Below are positions 2 through 6,796 of a DNA stretch of 6,964 bases, piece after piece. The stretch lies in IMG/VR virus record IMGVR_UViG_2693429728_000005, positions 1-6,964 of that record, one strand, 5' to 3'. Below the pieces are notes generated by a model. The model saw only the letters and a list, made by a program, of their open reading frames with translations, searched no databases and was not told the DNA's origin. A program made the translations under genes and the position numbers. Position 1 is the stretch's first letter; every line of letters starts with the position of its first letter. This DNA is from a virus. Its lineage: Duplodnaviria > Heunggongvirae > Uroviricota > Caudoviricetes.

Positions 2-406
2 GTGGTGAAGGATGCTTTTTATATTCATCAGCATAAAGGGACCACCAGTGCCGTGCGGCGGGTGGTGGAGCCGTTCGGATTCCTGATCCGCATTATTGAG
101 TGGTGGCAGACCGGAGAAACACCGGGCACGTTTCGCCTGGATATCGGCGTGCAGGACCAGGGCATCACTGAAGATACCTATCTGGAACTTGAGCGACTGA
201 TAAGCGATGCCAAACCATGTAGCCGCCACATGATCGGCATGTCCATCAATCTGCAGACCAGCGGCCCGCATTGGGTGGGAGCCGCCAGCTATCTTGGCGA
301 AGAAATCACGATCTATCCGTATATCAACGAAACGATTATTTCCGGTGGCACCGCGCATGAAGGCGGGGCGGTCCATGTTATTGACACAATGAGAGTGAAT
401 CCATGA
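2..406 (+). CDS. Baseplate assembly protein, P2 gpI-like, C-terminal part (5' end lies upstream of window)
   Basis: ORF runs from window edge; stop TGA overlaps ATG of the downstream fibre gene (ATGA at 403..406), typical translational coupling; position immediately upstream of H-like fibre gene matches P2 order I-H-G-FI-FII. Identity by synteny, not by search. Confidence 0.55.
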   Translation: MVKDAFYIHQHKGTTSAVRRVVEPFGFLIRIIEWWQTGETPGTFRLDIGVQDQGITEDTYLELERLISDAKPCSRHMIGMSINLQTSGPHWVGAASYLGEEITIYPYINETIISGGTAHEGGAVHVIDTMRVNP

Positions 407-1929
407 GCACAAAATTTTATACCCTGCTGACGGATATTGGCGCGGCGAAACTTGCCAGCGCCGCCGCGCTCGGTGTGCCGCTAAAAATTACCCATATGGC
501 GGTGGGCGATGGCGGTGGAGTATTGCCAACGCCGGACGCAAAACAGACGGCACTGGTAAATGAGAAACGCCGGGCTGCGCTGAATATGCTTTATATCGAC
601 CCGCAGAACAGCAGCCAGATTATTGCCGAACAGGTGATCCCTGAAAACGAGGGCGGTTGGTGGATACGTGAAGTGGGTCTGTTTGATGAGTCCGGGGCAT
701 TGATTGCCGTGGGCAACTGCCCGGAAAGCTATAAGCCGCAACTGGCTGAAGGTAGCGGGCGCACTCAGACCGTGCGCATGGTGCTGATTACCAGCAGCAC
801 GGACAATATCACCCTGAAAATCGACCCTGCTGTAGTGCTGGCAACCCGCAAGTATGTGGATGACAAGGCACTGGAGCTGAAGGTGTACGCGGATGATCAG
901 ATGGCAAAACATCTTGCCGCACCGGACCCGCATTCACAGTACGCGCCAAAAGCCAGCCCGACATTTACCGGAACCCCCAAAGCGCCAACGCCAGCGGCGG
1001 GGAATAATACCACGCAGGTTGCGACCACTGCGTTTGTACAGGCGGCACTGACGGCCCTTATTAATGGTGCGCCAGCCACGCTGGACACGCTGAAAGAAAT
1101 AGCCGCAGCCATTAACAATGATCCGAATTTCAGTACCACCATTAACAATGCGCTGGCACTAAAAGCACCGTTGTCGAGTCCGGCACTCACCGGAACGCCA
1201 ACAGCCCCCACGGCGGCGCAGTCGGTCAACAATACACAGATTGCCACTACGGCTTTTGTGAAATCGGCGATTGCAGGAATGGTGGGTTCTGCACCTGCTG
1301 CACTGGATACACTGAACGAACTGGCGGCGGCACTGGGGAATGATCCGAACTTTGCCACGACAATGCTTAATGCGCTGGCAGGTAAACAACCGCTGGACAA
1401 TACGCTTACCAATTTGAGTGGAAAGGATGTAGCTGGTCTTCTCACATACCTTGGTTTGGGAGAAGGCTCTGCATTGCCTGTTGGTGTGCCTGTTCCGTGG
1501 CCTTCAGCCACTCCGCCAACAGGCTGGCTGAAATGCAATGGTGCGGCTTTTTCTGCTGAAGAATACCCGGAACTGGCAAAGGCTTACCCGACAAATAAAT
1601 TGCCTGATTTACGCGGTGAATTTATTCGCGGCTGGGATGACGGGCGCGGGGTTGATGTTGGGCGTGCAATCTTATCATCGCAGGGCGATGCCATCAGAAA
1701 TATAATTGGCAAGTTTGGTAATACTCAATTGTACCCAAGTATCTATTGTGATGGTGCATTTGGCGTCACTGTTGAGAATGTGTCACAAACTTTAGGATTA
1801 ACTCTTGCGCCTTCAGGGGCAGGTAATGGGACTGTAAACTTTAGCTTTGATGCATCTAAAATCGTTCCTGTTGCCACTGAAAACCGGCCGCGCAACGTCG
1901 CATTTAACTTCATTGTGAGGGCTGCATAA
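403..1929 (+). CDS. Tail fibre protein (P2 gpH / Mu S-like): constant part Sc (aa 1-354) fused to variable tip Sv(A) (aa 355-508)
   Basis: 508-aa ORF; N-terminus MSTKFYTLLTDIGAAKLA...MAVGDGGG resembles P2 H N-terminus; internal NNTQxATTAFV...LDTLxExAAAxxNDPNF repeats typical of fibre shafts; C-terminus carries a tail-collar-like motif (PWPSATPPTGWLKCNGAAFSAEEYPELAKAYP...LPDLRGEFIRGWDDGRG); crossover site lies in-frame at codons 346-354 (LTYLGLGE). Confidence 0.9.
   Translation: MSTKFYTLLTDIGAAKLASAAALGVPLKITHMAVGDGGGVLPTPDAKQTALVNEKRRAALNMLYIDPQNSSQIIAEQVIPENEGGWWIREVGLFDESGALIAVGNCPESYKPQLAEGSGRTQTVRMVLITSSTDNITLKIDPAVVLATRKYVDDKALELKVYADDQMAKHLAAPDPHSQYAPKASPTFTGTPKAPTPAAGNNTTQVATTAFVQAALTALINGAPATLDTLKEIAAAINNDPNFSTTINNALALKAPLSSPALTGTPTAPTAAQSVNNTQIATTAFVKSAIAGMVGSAPAALDTLNELAAALGNDPNFATTMLNALAGKQPLDNTLTNLSGKDVAGLLTYLGLGEGSALPVGVPVPWPSATPPTGWLKCNGAAFSAEEYPELAKAYPTNKLPDLRGEFIRGWDDGRGVDVGRAILSSQGDAIRNIIGKFGNTQLYPSIYCDGAFGVTVENVSQTLGLTLAPSGAGNGTVNFSFDASKIVPVATENRPRNVAFNFIVRAA
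1439..1464. other. Invertase crossover site cix1 (26 bp, TTCTCACATACC-TT-GGTTTGGGAGAA), inside fibre gene at Sc/Sv boundary
   Basis: Near-palindromic 12-2-12 site resembling hix/gix/cix sites (half-site like TTCTCCCAAACC); sequence identity between copies begins within it; core dinucleotide TT on top strand. Confidence 0.75.
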
Positions 1930-2271
1930 TGGCACAGGCAAAATTAAACAGCGAACTGATTGCCACGGTAGCGGGTGATGTGACCGTGTTTAACTACGAC
2001 AGCAAGACGCGGGAATATCTTTCCACATCAACTGAATATCTTGCTGTTGGCGTCGGTATCCCGGCATGTTCTTGTTTAGATGCACCAGGTATACATAAAG
2101 CTGGTTATGCAATCTGCCGTTCAGCAGATTTAAACTCATGGGAGTATGTGCCAGACCATCGCGGTGAAATCATCTATAACACCGAAACGGGAGACGCCAA
2201 AGAAATCACAACTCCGGGTGATTACCCTGAAAATACAACCACTATCGCCCCGTTAACGCCATTCGATAAAT
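1451..2271 (+). repeat. Direct repeat copy 1 (821 bp): Sv(A) tip plus first 114 codons of tfa(A); identical to 2981..3801
   Basis: Base-for-base identity read from sequence and identical ORF translations; divergence at 1450 vs 2980 and at 2272 vs 3802. Confidence 0.9.
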
Positions 2272-2273
2272 AA
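1929..2273 (+). pseudogene. Truncated tail-fibre assembly gene (first 114 codons of tfa(A), then immediate TAA created by the rearrangement junction)
   Basis: 114-aa ORF identical to residues 1-114 of the 200-aa ORF at 3459..4061; lacks the C-terminal Tfa region (LNAVLDYIDAV...); sequence after codon 114 switches to the reverse complement of the invertase-downstream region. Confidence 0.8.
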
Positions 2274-2346
2274 GCGCAGTTGTACCGTTATTCACACAAA
2301 ATGACGGTATTTGTCTGCTTGCAGGGATAATCAAAATAATGCTGAT

Positions 2347-2913
2347 TCAGGGAGATTCATTGCTCTTATTTGCCGGAAATTTTCTATAAATAGTAGAAAC
2401 GCCTACATCAAAAATCAGTGCAATACGCTGTCTTGATTCTCCGGCCTCAAGTAAACGCCCAATCTGTGCCCACTGTTCGGTGGTCAACTTAGGACGGCGT
2501 CCACCTACTCTGCCTTTGGCACGAGCTGCAGCCAGCCCTGCCCTGGTACGTTCAACTATCAGTTCGCGTTCCATTTCAGCCAGGGCACCCATAACATGAA
2601 AAAAGAAACGGCCCATTGGGGTACTGGTATCAATACTGTCAGTCAGGCTTCGGAAATTCACGCCACGCTGGCGCAACTCTTCTATCAGCGTAACAAGATG
2701 CCGCATACTGCGCCCCAGTCTGTCCAGCTTCCAGACAACCAGAGTGTCTCCTGCCGATAGTGTCCTGAGCAGTTTTTTAAGCCCCGGTCTGTCGGACTTA
2801 GTGCCACTGATTTTATCCTCAAAAATCCGCTCACATCCCGCGCAGTTCAGTGCATTACGTTGCAAATCGGTGTTCTGGTCATTTGTTGACACGCGTACAT
2901 AGCCAATAAGCAT
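2347..2913 (-). CDS. Serine DNA invertase, Gin/Pin/Cin/Hin family, copy 1 (189 aa from the MLIGYVRVS start; ORF as drawn extends to 2958)
   Basis: N-terminus MLIGYVRVSTNDQNTDLQRNAL with catalytic-serine motif, VVWKLDRLGRS, FFFHVMGALAEMERELIVERT, and C-terminal HTH region GVSTIYRKF are hallmarks of small serine invertases, very close to Mu Gin as remembered; preferred start has an AGGGGA Shine-Dalgarno 7 nt upstream. Confidence 0.9.
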   Translation of the reverse strand: MLIGYVRVSTNDQNTDLQRNALNCAGCERIFEDKISGTKSDRPGLKKLLRTLSAGDTLVVWKLDRLGRSMRHLVTLIEELRQRGVNFRSLTDSIDTSTPMGRFFFHVMGALAEMERELIVERTRAGLAAARAKGRVGGRRPKLTTEQWAQIGRLLEAGESRQRIALIFDVGVSTIYRKFPANKSNESP

Positions 2914-2940
2914 GATCAATCCCCTGAATAAAAACCGGGG

Positions 2941-3459
2941 ATGATGCCAGTTAGCCATTATCTCTGCATTTTCATAAACGTTGGTTTGGGAGAAGGCTCT
3001 GCATTGCCTGTTGGTGTGCCTGTTCCGTGGCCTTCAGCCACTCCGCCAACAGGCTGGCTGAAATGCAATGGTGCGGCTTTTTCTGCTGAAGAATACCCGG
3101 AACTGGCAAAGGCTTACCCGACAAATAAATTGCCTGATTTACGCGGTGAATTTATTCGCGGCTGGGATGACGGGCGCGGGGTTGATGTTGGGCGTGCAAT
3201 CTTATCATCGCAGGGCGATGCCATCAGAAATATAATTGGCAAGTTTGGTAATACTCAATTGTACCCAAGTATCTATTGTGATGGTGCATTTGGCGTCACT
3301 GTTGAGAATGTGTCACAAACTTTAGGATTAACTCTTGCGCCTTCAGGGGCAGGTAATGGGACTGTAAACTTTAGCTTTGATGCATCTAAAATCGTTCCTG
3401 TTGCCACTGAAAACCGGCCGCGCAACGTCGCATTTAACTTCATTGTGAGGGCTGCATAA
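2941..3459 (+). CDS. Second copy of Sv(A) fibre-tip cassette, promoterless and not fused to Sc in this arrangement (cassette proper 2995..3459; the first 18 codons of the ORF are read-through across cix2 into invertase-upstream DNA)
   Basis: Residues after GLGE are identical to aa 355-508 of the fibre gene; N-terminal [14 protein letters not shown] is the antisense of the invertase leader and also appears at the start of the Sv(B) ORF, so it is not a genuine N-terminus. Confidence 0.6.
   Translation: MMPVSHYLCIFINVGLGEGSALPVGVPVPWPSATPPTGWLKCNGAAFSAEEYPELAKAYPTNKLPDLRGEFIRGWDDGRGVDVGRAILSSQGDAIRNIIGKFGNTQLYPSIYCDGAFGVTVENVSQTLGLTLAPSGAGNGTVNFSFDASKIVPVATENRPRNVAFNFIVRAA
2969..2994. other. 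Invertase crossover site cix2 (TTTTCATAAACG-TT-GGTTTGGGAGAA), same orientation as cix1
   Basis: Exact reverse complement of cix3; the left half-site is continuous with invertase-upstream sequence, the right half with Sv(A). Confidence 0.75.
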
Positions 3460-3801
3460 TGGCACAGGCAAAATTAAACAGCGAACTGATTGCCACGGTA
3501 GCGGGTGATGTGACCGTGTTTAACTACGACAGCAAGACGCGGGAATATCTTTCCACATCAACTGAATATCTTGCTGTTGGCGTCGGTATCCCGGCATGTT
3601 CTTGTTTAGATGCACCAGGTATACATAAAGCTGGTTATGCAATCTGCCGTTCAGCAGATTTAAACTCATGGGAGTATGTGCCAGACCATCGCGGTGAAAT
3701 CATCTATAACACCGAAACGGGAGACGCCAAAGAAATCACAACTCCGGGTGATTACCCTGAAAATACAACCACTATCGCCCCGTTAACGCCATTCGATAAA
3801 T
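2981..3801 (+). repeat. Direct repeat copy 2 (821 bp), identical to 1451..2271
   Basis: See copy 1. Confidence 0.9.
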
Positions 3802-4061
3802 GGGATGGTGAGAAATGGGTGACCGATACTGAGGCACAGCATTGCGCCGCAGTAGACGCGGCAGAAGCACAGCGTCAGTCACTGATTGATACTGCAATGG
3901 CTTCCATCAGTCTGATTCAACTGAAATTGCAGGCCGGGCGGAAGCTGACGCAGGCAGAAACCACCCGACTTAACGCTGTGCTGGATTACATTGACGCGGT
4001 GACGGCAACAGATACCAGCACCGCGCCGGATGTCATCTGGCCTGAACTGCCGGAGGCGTAG
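3459..4061 (+). CDS. Tail-fibre assembly protein tfa(A) (P2 gpG / Mu U-like), full length, 200 aa
   Basis: Start ATG overlaps the Sv(A) stop (TAATG); C-terminal LNAVLDYIDAVTATDTSTAPDVIWPELP resembles conserved Tfa C-termini; position directly after the fibre tip. Confidence 0.85.
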   Translation: MAQAKLNSELIATVAGDVTVFNYDSKTREYLSTSTEYLAVGVGIPACSCLDAPGIHKAGYAICRSADLNSWEYVPDHRGEIIYNTETGDAKEITTPGDYPENTTTIAPLTPFDKWDGEKWVTDTEAQHCAAVDAAEAQRQSLIDTAMASISLIQLKLQAGRKLTQAETTRLNAVLDYIDAVTATDTSTAPDVIWPELPEA

Positions 4062-4473
4062 GCCATTCAATATCTGGCGCACCGGAAGTATCGACCAGTT
4101 CCAGTGCGTCCAGGTAATCCAGCCACAAATTATATTGCGCCAGTTCGTCACCTTTCAGACGACCAATAGCCGCTTTACCAGGCCATTGTTTACTGTTCAT
4201 ATAATCGTTGGCCTGATTAATCAATTGCTGCTTCTCCAGTTCGGCTGCAGCAATTTGTTCCTCATGTGTTGGTGGTGGAATTTCGGACCATGCAGGAAAA
4301 CCATTTTCTCCAGCGATACGGATTTTTCCTTTCGGCGGTAATCCGGAAAACTCAATATACACTTGCTCATCAACTTCAACAGCATCATCTGGCCATGAGT
4401 CAGCTTGAGTGTAATCCTCTTTCATCTCCAGCGGATAGAAAGAGTTTGTAGTCGCGGAATATATGTAATTCAT
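4033..4473 (-). CDS. Alternative tail-fibre assembly protein tfa(B) (Mu U'-like), 146 aa
   Basis: Convergent with tfa(A), with 3' ends overlapping by 29 bp (4033..4061); C-terminal NLWLDYLDALELVDTSGAPDIEWPTPP parallels the tfa(A) C-terminus; GGAG Shine-Dalgarno upstream on minus strand. Confidence 0.8.
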   Translation of the reverse strand: MNYIYSATTNSFYPLEMKEDYTQADSWPDDAVEVDEQVYIEFSGLPPKGKIRIAGENGFPAWSEIPPPTHEEQIAAAELEKQQLINQANDYMNSKQWPGKAAIGRLKGDELAQYNLWLDYLDALELVDTSGAPDIEWPTPPAVQAR

Positions 4474-4494
4474 TTTTCACTCCATATAGCTAAA

Positions 4495-4887
4495 TTAACA
4501 GCCTAACGCTAAAAATGAAGCGCCGAGGCCAGGAGTACTGGCTCTGGATATAAATTTAACCGGGTCGGGACTAAAACCTGCACAGGCAATATAACCAACA
4601 GCCCCGCTATCTGGTGTGTAGTCTTGTGAGACCAAAACACGCAGACATCTGTTTGGAAATGCAATCGGGAAATGGGTTACTACATCCTGTGCAATGCCTG
4701 GTGCGCCGATTGAGCCCCACTGAAGAATAAAACCTGATGGTAATTTTTGATATCCAGTACCTGAAACAGAAAGCGTGAAGCTACCCATATCAGGTATCTG
4801 ATTCGCCCCTGTCCCTACATTCCTTTTAGCCGCTTCTCCCAAACCAACGTTTATGAAAATGCAGAGATAATGGCTAACTGGCATCAT
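4495..4887 (-). CDS. Alternative fibre-tip cassette Sv(B), silent in this orientation (cassette proper 4495..4833, 112 aa after GLGE; the ORF as drawn reads through cix3)
   Basis: Minus-strand reading through cix3 gives ...NVGLGE then [19 protein letters not shown]...ALGC, in the same frame as Sc across the crossover site; inversion would produce a 466-aa Sc+Sv(B) fibre; sits directly upstream (minus sense) of tfa(B). Confidence 0.75.
4834..4859. other. Invertase crossover site cix3 (TTCTCCCAAACC-AA-CGTTTATGAAAA), inverted relative to cix1 and cix2
   Basis: 12-2-12 site; close to the hix half-site as remembered (TTATCAAAAACC); core AA on top strand versus TT at cix1/cix2. Confidence 0.8.
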
Positions 4888-4914
4888 CCCCGGTTTTTAT
4901 TCAGGGGATTGATC

Positions 4915-5481
4915 ATGCTTATTGGCTATGTACGCGTGTCAACAAATGACCAGAACACCGATTTGCAACGTAATGCACTGAACTGCGCGGGATGTGAGCG
5001 GATTTTTGAGGATAAAATCAGTGGCACTAAGTCCGACAGACCGGGGCTTAAAAAACTGCTCAGGACACTATCGGCAGGAGACACTCTGGTTGTCTGGAAG
5101 CTGGACAGACTGGGGCGCAGTATGCGGCATCTTGTTACGCTGATAGAAGAGTTGCGCCAGCGTGGCGTGAATTTCCGAAGCCTGACTGACAGTATTGATA
5201 CCAGTACCCCAATGGGCCGTTTCTTTTTTCATGTTATGGGTGCCCTGGCTGAAATGGAACGCGAACTGATAGTTGAACGTACCAGGGCAGGGCTGGCTGC
5301 AGCTCGTGCCAAAGGCAGAGTAGGTGGACGCCGTCCTAAGTTGACCACCGAACAGTGGGCACAGATTGGGCGTTTACTTGAGGCCGGAGAATCAAGACAG
5401 CGTATTGCACTGATTTTTGATGTAGGCGTTTCTACTATTTATAGAAAATTTCCGGCAAATAAGAGCAATGAATCTCCCTGA
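4915..5481 (+). CDS. Serine DNA invertase, Gin/Pin/Cin/Hin family, copy 2 (ORF as drawn starts at 4870)
   Basis: Identical protein to copy 1; AGGGGA Shine-Dalgarno before ATG 4915; a GATAAT -10-like hexamer at 4866..4871 abuts cix3, consistent with a promoter overlapping the crossover site. Confidence 0.9.
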   Translation: MLIGYVRVSTNDQNTDLQRNALNCAGCERIFEDKISGTKSDRPGLKKLLRTLSAGDTLVVWKLDRLGRSMRHLVTLIEELRQRGVNFRSLTDSIDTSTPMGRFFFHVMGALAEMERELIVERTRAGLAAARAKGRVGGRRPKLTTEQWAQIGRLLEAGESRQRIALIFDVGVSTIYRKFPANKSNESP

Positions 5482-5529
5482 ATCAGCATTATTTTGATTA
5501 TCCCTGCAAGCAGACAAATACCGTCATTT

Positions 5530-5547
5530 TGTGTGAATAACGGTACA
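5530..5547 (+). promoter_or_regulatory. TGT-N12-ACA dyad, candidate P2-type late-promoter activator (Ogr/Delta family) site upstream of the sheath gene
   Basis: TGTgtgaataacggtACA lies about 75-95 nt upstream of the sheath ATG (5624), appropriate for an element centred near -55; P2 late promoters carry this dyad. The same dyad is mirrored at 2281..2298 inside the left repeat arm. Confidence 0.4.
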
Positions 5548-5623
5548 ACTGCGCTTAGCTGTTTGTCAGGCACAATCACTTCAACATAGGGCGAAGCCTA
5601 ATCCAATCAGGAGGTTCGCCACT

Positions 5624-6796
5624 ATGGCTCAGGATTACCACCACGGGGTGCGCGTTGTTGAAGTCAACGAAGGCACCCGATCCATTACCACGGTGAGCAC
5701 CGCCATCGTGGGTATGATCTGCACGGGCGATGATGCCGATGCAAAAATGTTTCCTCTTAATAAACCCGTGCTGATCACTGATGTGCTGACTGCCAGCGGT
5801 AAAGCGGGTGAGTCCGGTACTCTGGCCCGTTCGCTGGATGCCATCGCTGACCAGGCAAAACCCGTGACCGTTGTTGTGCGTGTGCCGCAGGGTGAAACGG
5901 AAGACGAAACCACGACCAATATCATCGGCGCTGTGACTGCTGAAGGTAAAAAAACAGGCATGAAAGCCCTGCTATCTGCCCAGTCACAGCTCGGCGTTAA
6001 ACCGCGCATTCTCGGCGTGCCAGGTCACGATAACAAAGCCGTTGCGACTGAGTTGCTGAGCGTGGCGCAAAGCCTGCGTGGGTTTGCTTACCTGTCAGCG
6101 TATGGCTGCAAGACGGTACAGGAGGCGATCACTTACCGTGAAAACTTCAGCCAGCGCGAAGGAATGCTGATCTGGCCCGACTTTACTGGCTGGGATACGG
6201 TGTTGAATGCCGAAGCAACGGCATATGCCACCGCCCGTGCGCTTGGTCTGCGCGCCAAAATTGATGAGCAGACCGGGTGGCACAAAAGCCTGTCCAACGT
6301 GGGCGTGAACGGTGTCACCGGAATTTCTGCAGATGTGTTCTGGGATCTGCAGGACCCGGCAACCGATGCGGGACTGCTTAACCAGAACGACGTCACCACG
6401 CTTATCCGCAAAGACGGTTTCCGCTTCTGGGGTTCCCGCTGCCTGAGTGATGACCCGCTCTTTGCCTTCGAAAACTACACCCGCACGGCGCAGGTACTGA
6501 TGGACACGATGGCAGAAGCGCATATGTGGGCGGTGGACAAACCGCTGAACCCGTCGCTGGCCCGCGACATTATCGAAGGTATCCGCGCCAAAATGCGCAG
6601 CCTGGTCAGTCAGGGGTATCTCATTGGTGGTGATTGCTGGCTGGACGAGTCGGTGAACGACAAAGACACGCTGAAAGCCGGAAAACTCACCATCGACTAT
6701 GACTACACGCCAGTGCCGCCACTTGAAAATCTGATGCTGCGTCAGCGCATCACCGATCAGTACCTGGTGAATTTTGCCAGCCAGGTCAGCGCGTAA
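5624..6796 (+). CDS. Tail sheath protein (P2 gpFI-like), 390 aa
   Basis: Strong AGGAGG Shine-Dalgarno 8 nt upstream; N-terminus [31 protein letters not shown] matches the contractile-tail sheath N-terminus of P2-like phages as remembered; followed by tail tube gene. Confidence 0.9.

Follow-up and report, generated by a model that had tools for sequence, protein, structure and literature searches.

Known inversion systems

The closest described counterpart of the locus considered here is the Pin switch of the e14 element of E. coli K-12, where inversion has been mapped experimentally at the 16-mer TTGGTTTGGGAGAAGG (PMC12529663). The layout of that switch runs from the fibre gene through a crossover site, a tip and its tfa gene to a second tfa gene and a second tip, both reversed, and then to another site and the invertase gene; the tetrapeptide GLGE is found at the crossover in both StfP and StfE. 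A similar plan, in which a constant fibre part is combined with one of two tips that come with matching chaperones, is found in the Gin/G system of phage Mu and the Cin/C system of phage P1, both of which use 26-bp sites of the 12-2-12 type with a central crossover and carry a recombinational enhancer in the 5' part of the invertase gene. In the Hin/H segment of Salmonella, the invertase likewise depends on Fis and an enhancer and acts on 26-bp sites, the enhancer being located about 100 bp from the nearest site (PMC3798978). Finally, in P2-like prophages the flipping of fibre segments has been shown by sequencing and PCR, and the three-repeat fibre locus of the prophage of EPEC E2348/69 has been shown experimentally to invert (PMC4272514).

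The switch described below shares the layout and the site features listed for e14, Mu and P1, with a candidate enhancer in the corresponding place, and departs from each of them in specific ways. Thus, it is found in a P2-type tail module (gpI, H, sheath) that looks complete, whereas e14 is a decayed lambdoid remnant. The invertases of Mu and P1 are just 74-77% identical to the one encoded here; their sites differ too, gix having the core GA and cix the halves TTAAGAGAA. In P1, furthermore, cin is transcribed towards the invertible segment and cixL overlaps its 3' end. Hin resembles one of the two invertase genes of our locus in that its gene is located within the invertible segment, but it flips a promoter for flagellin genes and not a fibre-tip cassette.

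The fibre gene and its alternative tips

In the window, by which we mean the whole stretch of 6,964 nucleotides that was analysed, the expressed tail-fibre gene is of the P2 gpH type (403..1929, + strand) and codes for 508 aa, namely, the constant part Sc up to the GLGE linker (aa 351-354) and then a tail-collar tip, SvA, of 154 aa. Pfam assigns Phage_tail_fib to aa 1-150 and Collar to aa 361-408 of this fibre, and the identical protein is present on at least 35 blocks of public contigs. The alternative tip, SvB, is silent and reversed (4495..4887, - strand); it forms a 130-aa ORF that begins in the invertase leader and in which GLGE is followed by 112 aa of the Gp53-like_C fold family. The chaperone genes are convergent: the full-length tail-fibre assembly (tfa) gene for the SvA tip (3459..4061, + strand; 200 aa; Pfam Caudo_TAP, aa 78-199) is TfaE-like and similar to e14 TfaE, and it faces the tfa gene for the SvB tip (4033..4473, - strand; 146 aa; Pfam Caudo_TAP). 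The SvA/tfa pair is homologous to StfE/TfaE, with 86-94% DNA identity in parts, whereas the Gp53-like tip has diverged from its e14 counterpart, and only the window contains an extra block of 1530 bp. Two more reading frames belong to this block: a truncated tfa gene of 114 out of 200 aa (1929..2273, + strand), the product of which has no Pfam match, and a 172-aa leader-SvA ORF (2941-3459, + strand) that contains a second, silent copy of SvA.

The crossover sites

The three candidate crossover sites have a 26-bp 12-2-12 layout. Site 1, the left crossover site (1439-1464, + strand), reads TTCTCACATACC TT GGTTTGGGAGAA, with its outer half in Sc and its inner half in the invertible DNA. Site 2 (2969-2994, + strand), which reads TTTTCATAAACG TT GGTTTGGGAGAA, points the same way as site 1 and lies between the invertase leader and SvA. 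Site 3, the right crossover site (4834-4859, - strand), is the same 26-mer as site 2, TTTTCATAAACG TT GGTTTGGGAGAA, and appears on the + strand as TTCTCCCAAACC AA CGTTTATGAAAA, so that the + strand cores of sites 1, 2 and 3 are TT, TT and AA. The inner half GGTTTGGGAGAA codes for GLGE both in the fibre frame of the 508-aa ORF (403-1929) and in the silent tip ORF (4887-4495). All these particulars, down to the sequences, the cores, the inner and outer halves and the GLGE frame, had been proposed by a sequence-only reading of this DNA and were reproduced from the window sequence.

When the window was scanned with a 26-bp family consensus, only sites 1-3 were retrieved at up to 2 mismatches, the next best match having 7. 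Sites 1 and 3 differ from this consensus by 1-2 mismatches, have the same 2-bp core, and are in inverted orientation; the alignment with known family sites, which the same reading had called for, gave a pattern that matches P1, Mu and e14, and the centre of the 12-2-12 pattern coincides with the annotated P1 cixL/cixR crossover points and with the boundaries of the Mu G segment. Site 1 is also found in other loci of the comparison (L001, L003, L006, L014-L016). The designation of these sites as cix holds at the level of the family, but the pix sites of e14 are closer than those of P1: site 3 is identical to pixR at 26 of 26 positions (K-12 e14 locus L008, 5606-5631), pixL has the same inner half-site GGTTTGGGAGAA, and positions 1451-1466 of the window carry the 16-mer TTGGTTTGGGAGAAGG. 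The left sites differ in the outer half, which is TTCTCACATACC in the window and CTCTCGAAAACC in e14. Taken together, these comparisons identify the sites as crossover sites of a Hin/Gin/Cin/Pin-family invertase, of the pix type, and the sites and the invertase alike place the system in the Pin/pix (e14-type) subgroup.

The inner half-sites being identical, inversion would leave the 26-bp sites as well as the GLGE junction unaltered, and since GLGE is in frame, either tip could be fused to the constant part. Site 2 carries less weight than the other two. It lies in a stretch of 725 bp that repeats the surroundings of site 3 perfectly in inverted form, it also forms the start of an 821-bp perfect direct copy of the sequence after site 1, and, being embedded in perfect repeats with sites 1 and 3, it leaves only two sites as independent evidence.

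Natural flip states

Both orientations of the segment exist in nature. The Sc-GLGE-SvA junction is present in 428 complete E. coli genomes and the Sc-GLGE-SvB junction in 53. In silico, the flip yields an Sc-SvB fibre of 466 aa, in line with the earlier prediction that the 154-aa tip is exchanged for a 112-aa one; a fibre of 466 aa is indeed annotated in one of the SvB-state genomes, E. coli 160-11H1 (L006), and is identical to the predicted one from residue 327 to the end. Colinearity between the window and the naturally flipped 160-11H1 breaks within 1451-1465 and 4833-4859. Hence, the segment of the canonical locus, i.e. that with two sites and one invertase, occurs in both orientations, with breakpoints at the sites. 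Flipping of the canonical locus by RecA was considered and appears unlikely: the shared repeat is only 15-16 bp long, and colinearity breaks precisely where family-type sites adjoin an invertase gene.

The invertase and the putative enhancer

The invertase gene is present in two identical copies, each coding for 188 aa. Copy B (4915..5481, + strand) occupies the canonical place between the invertible segment and the tail-sheath gene, with its start assigned as in the annotation of the SL124 locus; copy A (2347..2913, - strand) is the mirror of 4915-5481. The protein is 85% identical to PinE, 77% to Cin and 74% to Gin, matches the Pfam families Resolvase (E = 2e-53) and HTH_7 (E = 1e-15), and aligns with the Gin crystal structure 3uj3 at E = 8e-93. 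When it is aligned with PinE, Cin and Gin, all four proteins share S9, R7, R65 and R68. Judged by its sequence, the protein is a small serine recombinase, with about 190 aa, an N-terminal resolvase domain with the serine nucleophile, and a C-terminal HTH_7 domain.

The residues of Hin that contact Fis or the enhancer are Q151, R154 and L155 and the basic residues 47, 48 and 51 (PMC3798978). In the alignment of the four invertases, namely, that of the window, PinE, Cin and Gin, Q150, R153 and L154 are invariant, and K46, K47 and R50 are all basic. Presumably, these correspond to Hin Q151/R154/L155 and 47/48/51 via a one-residue offset in the numbering. The recombinational enhancer annotated in P1 (nt 19-90 of cin) has a homologous stretch in the window at 4933..5004 (+ strand), about 87 bp from the centre of site 3, with a mirrored copy at 2824-2895; its identity is 78% to P1, 88% to e14 and 72% to Mu, but it overlaps coding sequence, and conservation alone is no proof of enhancer function. 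A scan of the invertase region for promoters and terminators returned no more sites than in shuffled sequence, and the Rfam and Tandem Repeats Finder scans returned nothing.

By homology, the invertase is expected to bind the 26-bp imperfect-dyad sites, with Fis on the enhancer in the 5' part of its own gene, to make double-strand cuts with a 2-bp stagger at the centre of both sites, and to rotate the half-sites by subunit rotation; its activity, its Fis dependence and the cleavage at the 2-bp core are ascribed to it from the homologues. The DNA between the site in the fibre gene and the site ahead of the invertase gene would thereby be inverted, and Sc would be joined in frame via GLGE either to SvA (collar type, 508 aa) or to SvB (Gp53-like, 466 aa), each tip being followed by what would be its own assembly chaperone.

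The 1530-bp block and its junction

All close relatives have two sites and one invertase, and what sets the window apart is the 1530-bp block around site 2, which consists only of perfect copies: the first 343 nt of tfa, SvA, one site, the whole invertase gene and 76 bp of downstream DNA. These copies form two pairs of repeats. The 821-bp direct repeat has its first copy at 1451..2271 (+ strand), with the core and the inner half-site, SvA and the first 343 nt of tfa; it is 100% identical to the second copy at 2981..3801 (+ strand), which holds the silent SvA. The inverted-repeat arm A of 725 bp (2271..2995, - strand) is 100% complementary to 4833-5557 and contains the 76 bp of downstream DNA, invertase copy A, the leader and site 2. 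At the novel junction (2270..2271), tfa breaks off at codon 114 and continues, with 1 bp of microhomology (T), into inverted sequence 76 bp past the stop codon of the invertase, and the TAA stop codon of the truncated tfa gene arises there.

This junction was sought widely. BLAST searches with a query of 100 bp across it gave no match spanning it in 5426 complete E. coli genomes or in the phage and plasmid collections, and an exact 29-mer was likewise missing from three collections of contigs (genome, viral and metagenome); in a protein look-up, neither the 114-aa junction-specific protein nor the 172-aa leader-SvA ORF was on record. Look-ups by fibre and by invertase retrieved only canonical one-invertase loci, and the same invertase protein was found on 9692 blocks of a public collection, always in a two-site layout, with varied fibre tips. 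In CP019274/5/9 the piece downstream of the invertase occurs in two places; CP019275, however, proved to be an ordinary flipped-state P2-like element free of the duplication.

The structure of the block can be reduced to simpler forms. Its removal leaves a locus of 5434 bp that is identical at 5434 of 5434 positions to the E. coli contig GCA_041003375.1, with one invertase and two sites. In turn, an in-silico inversion of site 1 against site 3 at the core converts the window into a perfect 1530-bp tandem duplication, the collapse of which gives exactly the flipped canonical state. The repeat boundaries confine the exchange to 2981-2995, core included, and this interval is as fine as their resolution goes.

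Origin of the third site

Inversion as such is unable to create a third site; site 2 exists only because the 1530-bp block is present twice. The sequence-only reading had taken site 2 for a hybrid of site 1 and site 3 and, hence, for the footprint of a past inversion. As a 26-mer, it is no hybrid, being identical to site 3; its flank, however, is recombinant, with the invertase leader joined to SvA as an exchange between sites 1 and 3 would give. The footprint thus holds only if the duplication is real, and the novel junction, unique to the window, may be an artefact of assembly or of a chimera. Given that the in-silico inversion turns the window into the flipped state with a perfect duplication in tandem, the simplest course of events is a flip, a tandem duplication and an inversion. 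The starting point would have been a canonical locus in the flipped, SvB-expressing state. Illegitimate recombination at 1 bp of microhomology would then have produced a head-to-tail tandem duplication from the 5' 343 nt of tfa through 76 bp past the invertase, whereupon the invertase would have flipped the left site against the distal copy of the right site, giving the present arrangement with one invertase copy inside the invertible DNA. We infer this order of events, along with the reality of the duplication, and consider it an evenly balanced proposition that the locus is a Pin-type tail-fibre host-range switch of a P2-like E. coli prophage which gained its third site by a real 1530-bp duplication followed by inversion; that we have caught such a switch in the act of gaining a site, its site, tip and invertase having been duplicated in tandem and then rearranged by a single inversion, falls slightly short of an even chance.

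Against a real duplication we count that the junction 2270/2271 has been seen nowhere else, that both repeat pairs are 100% identical, so that the structure must be either very recent or not real, and that direct repeats of 821 bp are expected to be lost quickly in a recA+ host, where RecA recombination between them would bring back the canonical locus. The same points, namely, uniqueness, perfect identity and expected genetic instability, favour the view that the window contains a canonical two-site Pin-type switch and that the block with site 2, invertase copy A, the second SvA and the truncated tfa is an assembly or library artefact; moreover, outside the block the window matches a canonical public contig with 100% identity, and flipping regions are known trouble spots for assembly, with the short-read contigs L004 and L005 stopping inside the region. 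Such an artefact would stem from a chimeric long read used as the assembly backbone where the sequenced population mixed both flip states. Mixed flip states in the reads can be rejected as the sole cause, given that neither state contains the 2270/2271 junction: the two ends that meet there fall within tfa and 76 bp beyond the invertase gene, away from any site, and a separate chimeric molecule would be required. It also speaks for biology rather than for a random chimera that the arrangement can be resolved, exactly to the base, into one tandem duplication and a single site-specific inversion. All in all, we regard the artefact as less likely than not, but as a serious contender.

A real duplication could also have arisen without the invertase, in which case site 2 would be no footprint of inversion. 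In E. coli, mutations are well known to arise when replication changes templates at short inverted repeats. During replication of the unflipped locus, a jump at 1 bp of microhomology, leaving tfa at nt 343 and landing on the other strand 76 bp beyond the invertase gene, and a return at the 15-bp identity TTGGTTTGGGAGAAG common to sites 3 and 1 would produce the block, and its second boundary does fall within the 15 bp that the sites share (2981-2995). Yet two coordinated switches are required, whereas tandem duplication takes just one illegitimate event and one routine inversion; besides, an invertase that looks active is encoded on the spot, and relatives naturally flip at exactly the same position, all of which makes template switching unlikely. 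Still less credence can be given to an evolved three-site, shufflon-like system with one tip per site, in the manner of Min of plasmid p15B or of the EPEC prophage. By enumeration, three sites give four isomers, each convertible into two others, which is the graph described for the three repeats and four variants of the EPEC prophage, a phage of the same type (PMC4272514). However, the EPEC locus combines three different C-termini with one invertase, as expected of a multi-site system (at least three sites, a different C-terminus for each, one invertase), whereas the third site of the window brings a duplicate tip and a second invertase copy, so that two fibre products are all that it could offer. 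The perfect identity of the two SvA copies already contradicts a shufflon-like reading, and the relatives with the identical invertase all have two sites, making such a system very improbable.

Implications

The switch system is already known, and the anatomy of its sites is textbook for the Hin/Gin/Cin/Pin family, to which it adds nothing new. The single unusual feature is the perfect 1530-base duplication, possibly an assembly error, to which the third site and the second invertase gene are due; the three-site picture depends on it entirely, and a check of the reads should precede any use of this structure. If the duplication is true, it would be a small example of how extra crossover sites and cassettes could join fibre-switching systems, and a natural intermediate on the way from a two-site switch to a multi-site, shufflon-like system such as p15B Min or the three-repeat EPEC prophage. 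It would, in addition, contain a built-in record of the invertase acting in vivo on non-adjacent sites. Among the four enumerated isomers, SvA would be expressed by three and SvB by one.

Organization of the tail module

The genes in the window make up the tail module of a P2-like prophage. The end of gpI (ORF 2-406) is followed by the 508-aa tail-fibre gene (403-1929), whose product has an N-terminal Phage_tail_fib domain and, at aa 361-408, a Collar domain. In Sc, the constant part of the fibre, there are two 74-aa tandem repeats (window 955-1176 and 1177-1398; aa 185-258 and 259-332), with approximately 60% of positions identical when the two are aligned and with TGTP.APT, ATTAFV, LDTL and NDPNF in each. 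The tail-fibre assembly (tfa) genes lie between the fibre gene and the silent Gp53-like tip SvB (4495-4887, minus strand), and the 188-aa serine invertase (4915-5481, plus strand) is followed by the tail-sheath gene (5624-6796).

Unusually, the window has two copies of the invertase gene, in opposed orientations (2347-2913, minus; 4915-5481, plus), and likewise two of the collar-type tip SvA. In the present arrangement, a truncated tfa, devoid of most of the Caudo_TAP domain, directly follows the fibre gene, while an intact copy is found 1.2 kb downstream, past the antisense invertase copy. The 3' ends of the convergent tfa genes overlap by 29 bp (4033-4061), and the corresponding overlap is 29-32 bp in most of the relatives with two full-length chaperone genes. 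Each of the non-expressed tips (4495-4887, minus; 2941-3459, plus) lies within an ORF beginning in the leader of the invertase gene, so that 18 residues precede the tip; the 130-aa ORF made up of the leader and the Gp53-like tip has the same build as 'StfE2' of the cryptic prophage e14, a protein reported to block adsorption of phage T2 (PMC12529663). A weak hairpin with a T-run behind it (4876-4895, plus; mirrored at 2933-2952) is located between the right-hand site and the start codon of the invertase gene, and could keep down transcription that reads through into this gene from the late operon; in a promoter/terminator scan, the count of such matches in the invertase region was not above that in shuffled sequence.

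Crossover sites of the Pin type

Re-checking the window sequence confirmed everything that the sequence-only reading had stated about the sequences of the three crossover sites. Site 1 (1439-1464) is TTCTCACATACC TT GGTTTGGGAGAA, site 2 (2969-2994) is TTTTCATAAACG TT GGTTTGGGAGAA, and site 3 (4834-4859), read as its reverse complement, is TTTTCATAAACG TT GGTTTGGGAGAA, the same as site 2. These three are the only sites in the window with two or fewer mismatches to the 26-bp family consensus, the next candidates having 7 mismatches. In the reading frames of both the fibre (aa 351-354) and the silent tip, the inner half GGTTTGGGAGAA is translated as a GLGE linker, and ORF translation bore out the lengths of the tips that follow it, 154 and 112 aa. 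Identical inner and divergent outer halves are the usual anatomy of Hin/Gin/Cin/Pin-family sites; owing to this arrangement, the 26-mers and the in-frame junction stay constant through each flip.

Alignment with known family sites, proposed beforehand as a check, was run against the homologous regions of phage Mu, e14 of E. coli K-12 and phage P1, taken from public records. The 12-2-12 pattern is common to all of them and falls exactly on the annotated boundaries of the Mu G segment and on the cixL/cixR crossover points of P1. In e14, the site in front of pinE matches the right-hand site of the window at 26/26 positions, the site inside stfP has the same inner half, and GLGE is found at the crossover in StfP and StfE, as in the window fibre. 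Inversion of the e14 P segment has been mapped to TTGGTTTGGGAGAAGG and its complement (PMC12529663), and this 16-mer is window 1451-1466. The invertase shares 85% identity with PinE, 77% with Cin of P1 and 74% with Gin of Mu, and the crystal structure of Gin is a match with E = 8e-93; alignment with PinE, Cin and Gin shows that the catalytic serine is kept, as are the residues reported to be particular to Fis- and enhancer-dependent invertases (PMC3798978). A stretch that aligns with the annotated P1 enhancer (78% identity to P1, 88% to e14) is located some 87 bp away from site 3, a spacing comparable to the approximately 100 bp reported between the Hin enhancer and the nearest site (PMC3798978); since this stretch is also coding sequence, the similarity is no more than suggestive of an enhancer. 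Taken together, these comparisons identify the window sites, therefore, as pix-type members of the Hin/Gin/Cin/Pin family. Accordingly, the name cix is adequate at the level of the family, but not of the type, as can be judged from the 26/26 match with e14 and from PinE being the closest invertase.

Evidence for inversion

Both products of the switch are found in public genomes. A 300-bp query joining Sc to SvB at the site had a full match in 53 complete E. coli genomes (best identity 99.7%), and the Sc-SvA junction had a match in 428. The flipped fibre had been predicted at 466 aa; inversion in silico yields this length, and strain 160-11H1 has a fibre annotated at 466 aa that is identical to the predicted protein from residue 327 to the end. 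When the unflipped sequence is compared with the 160-11H1 locus, the strand switches within 1451-1465 and 4833-4859 (window coordinates). Sequencing and PCR have shown that fibre segments of P2-like prophages flip (PMC4272514). Two short-read contigs in which the fibre gene is identical stop short within the invertible DNA, one (L004) in SvB and the other (L005) 540 nt into tfa, which fits the idea that assembly breaks here when orientations are mixed.

Origin of the third site

Site 2 is not independent of the other two. Two perfect repeats are present in the window, one direct, of 821 bp (1451-2271 = 2981-3801), and one inverted, of 725 bp (2271-2995, the reverse complement of 4833-5557), and together they account for exactly 1530 extra bases. 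Deletion of 1451-2980 leaves a 5434-bp sequence that is identical at 5434/5434 positions to a contig of GCA_041003375.1 and has 5 differences from strain SL124; both genomes have two sites and one invertase. The only sequence beyond this canonical locus is the 2270/2271 junction, where tfa codon 114 is joined, with 1 bp of microhomology, to inverted DNA at a point 76 bp past the stop codon of the invertase. The switch is of a known kind and, after the collapse, of known sequence; the candidate structural variant is the only new element of the window.

Inversion alone cannot produce an extra site. In-silico inversion of the window, with exchange between sites 1 and 3 at their 2-bp core, yields a sequence that has a perfect 1530-bp head-to-tail tandem duplication (units 2497-4026 and 4027-5556 of the inverted sequence), the collapse of which gives exactly the flipped canonical locus. 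The most economical history would, therefore, comprise three steps: the locus would have been in the flipped state; the segment containing the 5' part of tfa, SvA, the right site, the invertase and 76 bp would have been duplicated in tandem; and a site-specific inversion would then have taken place between the left site and the distal one of the two right sites. That a real duplication was followed by inversion is, in our judgement, about evenly poised between true and false; it is favored by the fact that the structure can be resolved, with base precision, into an ordinary mutation plus a routine inversion.

The same exactness argues against the 1530-bp duplication being an artefact, and mixed flip states in the reads would not suffice, by themselves, to make the 2270/2271 junction. 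Nevertheless, an artefact is a tentative possibility to be taken seriously: the duplicated copies are all 100% identical, the remainder of the window is identical to canonical public sequence, 821-bp direct repeats are expected to be unstable in a recA+ host, and invertible regions disturb assemblies, as with the two short-read contigs that end within the locus. Furthermore, the junction is unique to the window: no match turned up among 5426 complete E. coli genomes, in collections of phages and of plasmids, or in contig collections of genome, viral and metagenome origin; a protein look-up returned no record of the 114-aa truncated tfa product. A real event in which double template switching made the structure with no involvement of the invertase appears improbable, and a system that evolved to have three sites is very improbable indeed.

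The sequence-only reading was, hence, largely right on the working of the switch and its products, but incomplete on the reason for three sites: the hybrid site taken as a footprint of past inversion is one only if duplication preceded inversion, a duplication which that reading left out. By enumeration, three sites give four isomers, each of which can turn into two others by a single inversion; the fibre ends in SvA in three of them and in SvB in one. The isomer graph equals that of the three-repeat P2-like prophage of EPEC, but the window gains no third tip.

Relatives with an identical invertase

In a public collection, 9692 blocks list a 188-aa invertase identical to that of the window. 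Ten different genomic contexts that encode this invertase all have one invertase and the same two sites, with no more than 1-2 substitutions, whereas their tip cassettes vary and occur in either orientation. The invertase and the two sites form a fixed scaffold, between the sites of which widely different tips and chaperones are found. One of these loci (L018) carries an IS insertion, and two others (L013 and L019) have truncated chaperone genes. In GCA_003547705.1, a second site-like sequence, TTCGCTTCTACC TT GGTTTAGGAGAA, lies 80 bp downstream of the left site in the same orientation (1038-1063 and 1118-1143 in the coordinates of that locus, L010); the fibre gene of this locus is split, and its tip ORFs are unrelated and much larger (359 and 366 aa).
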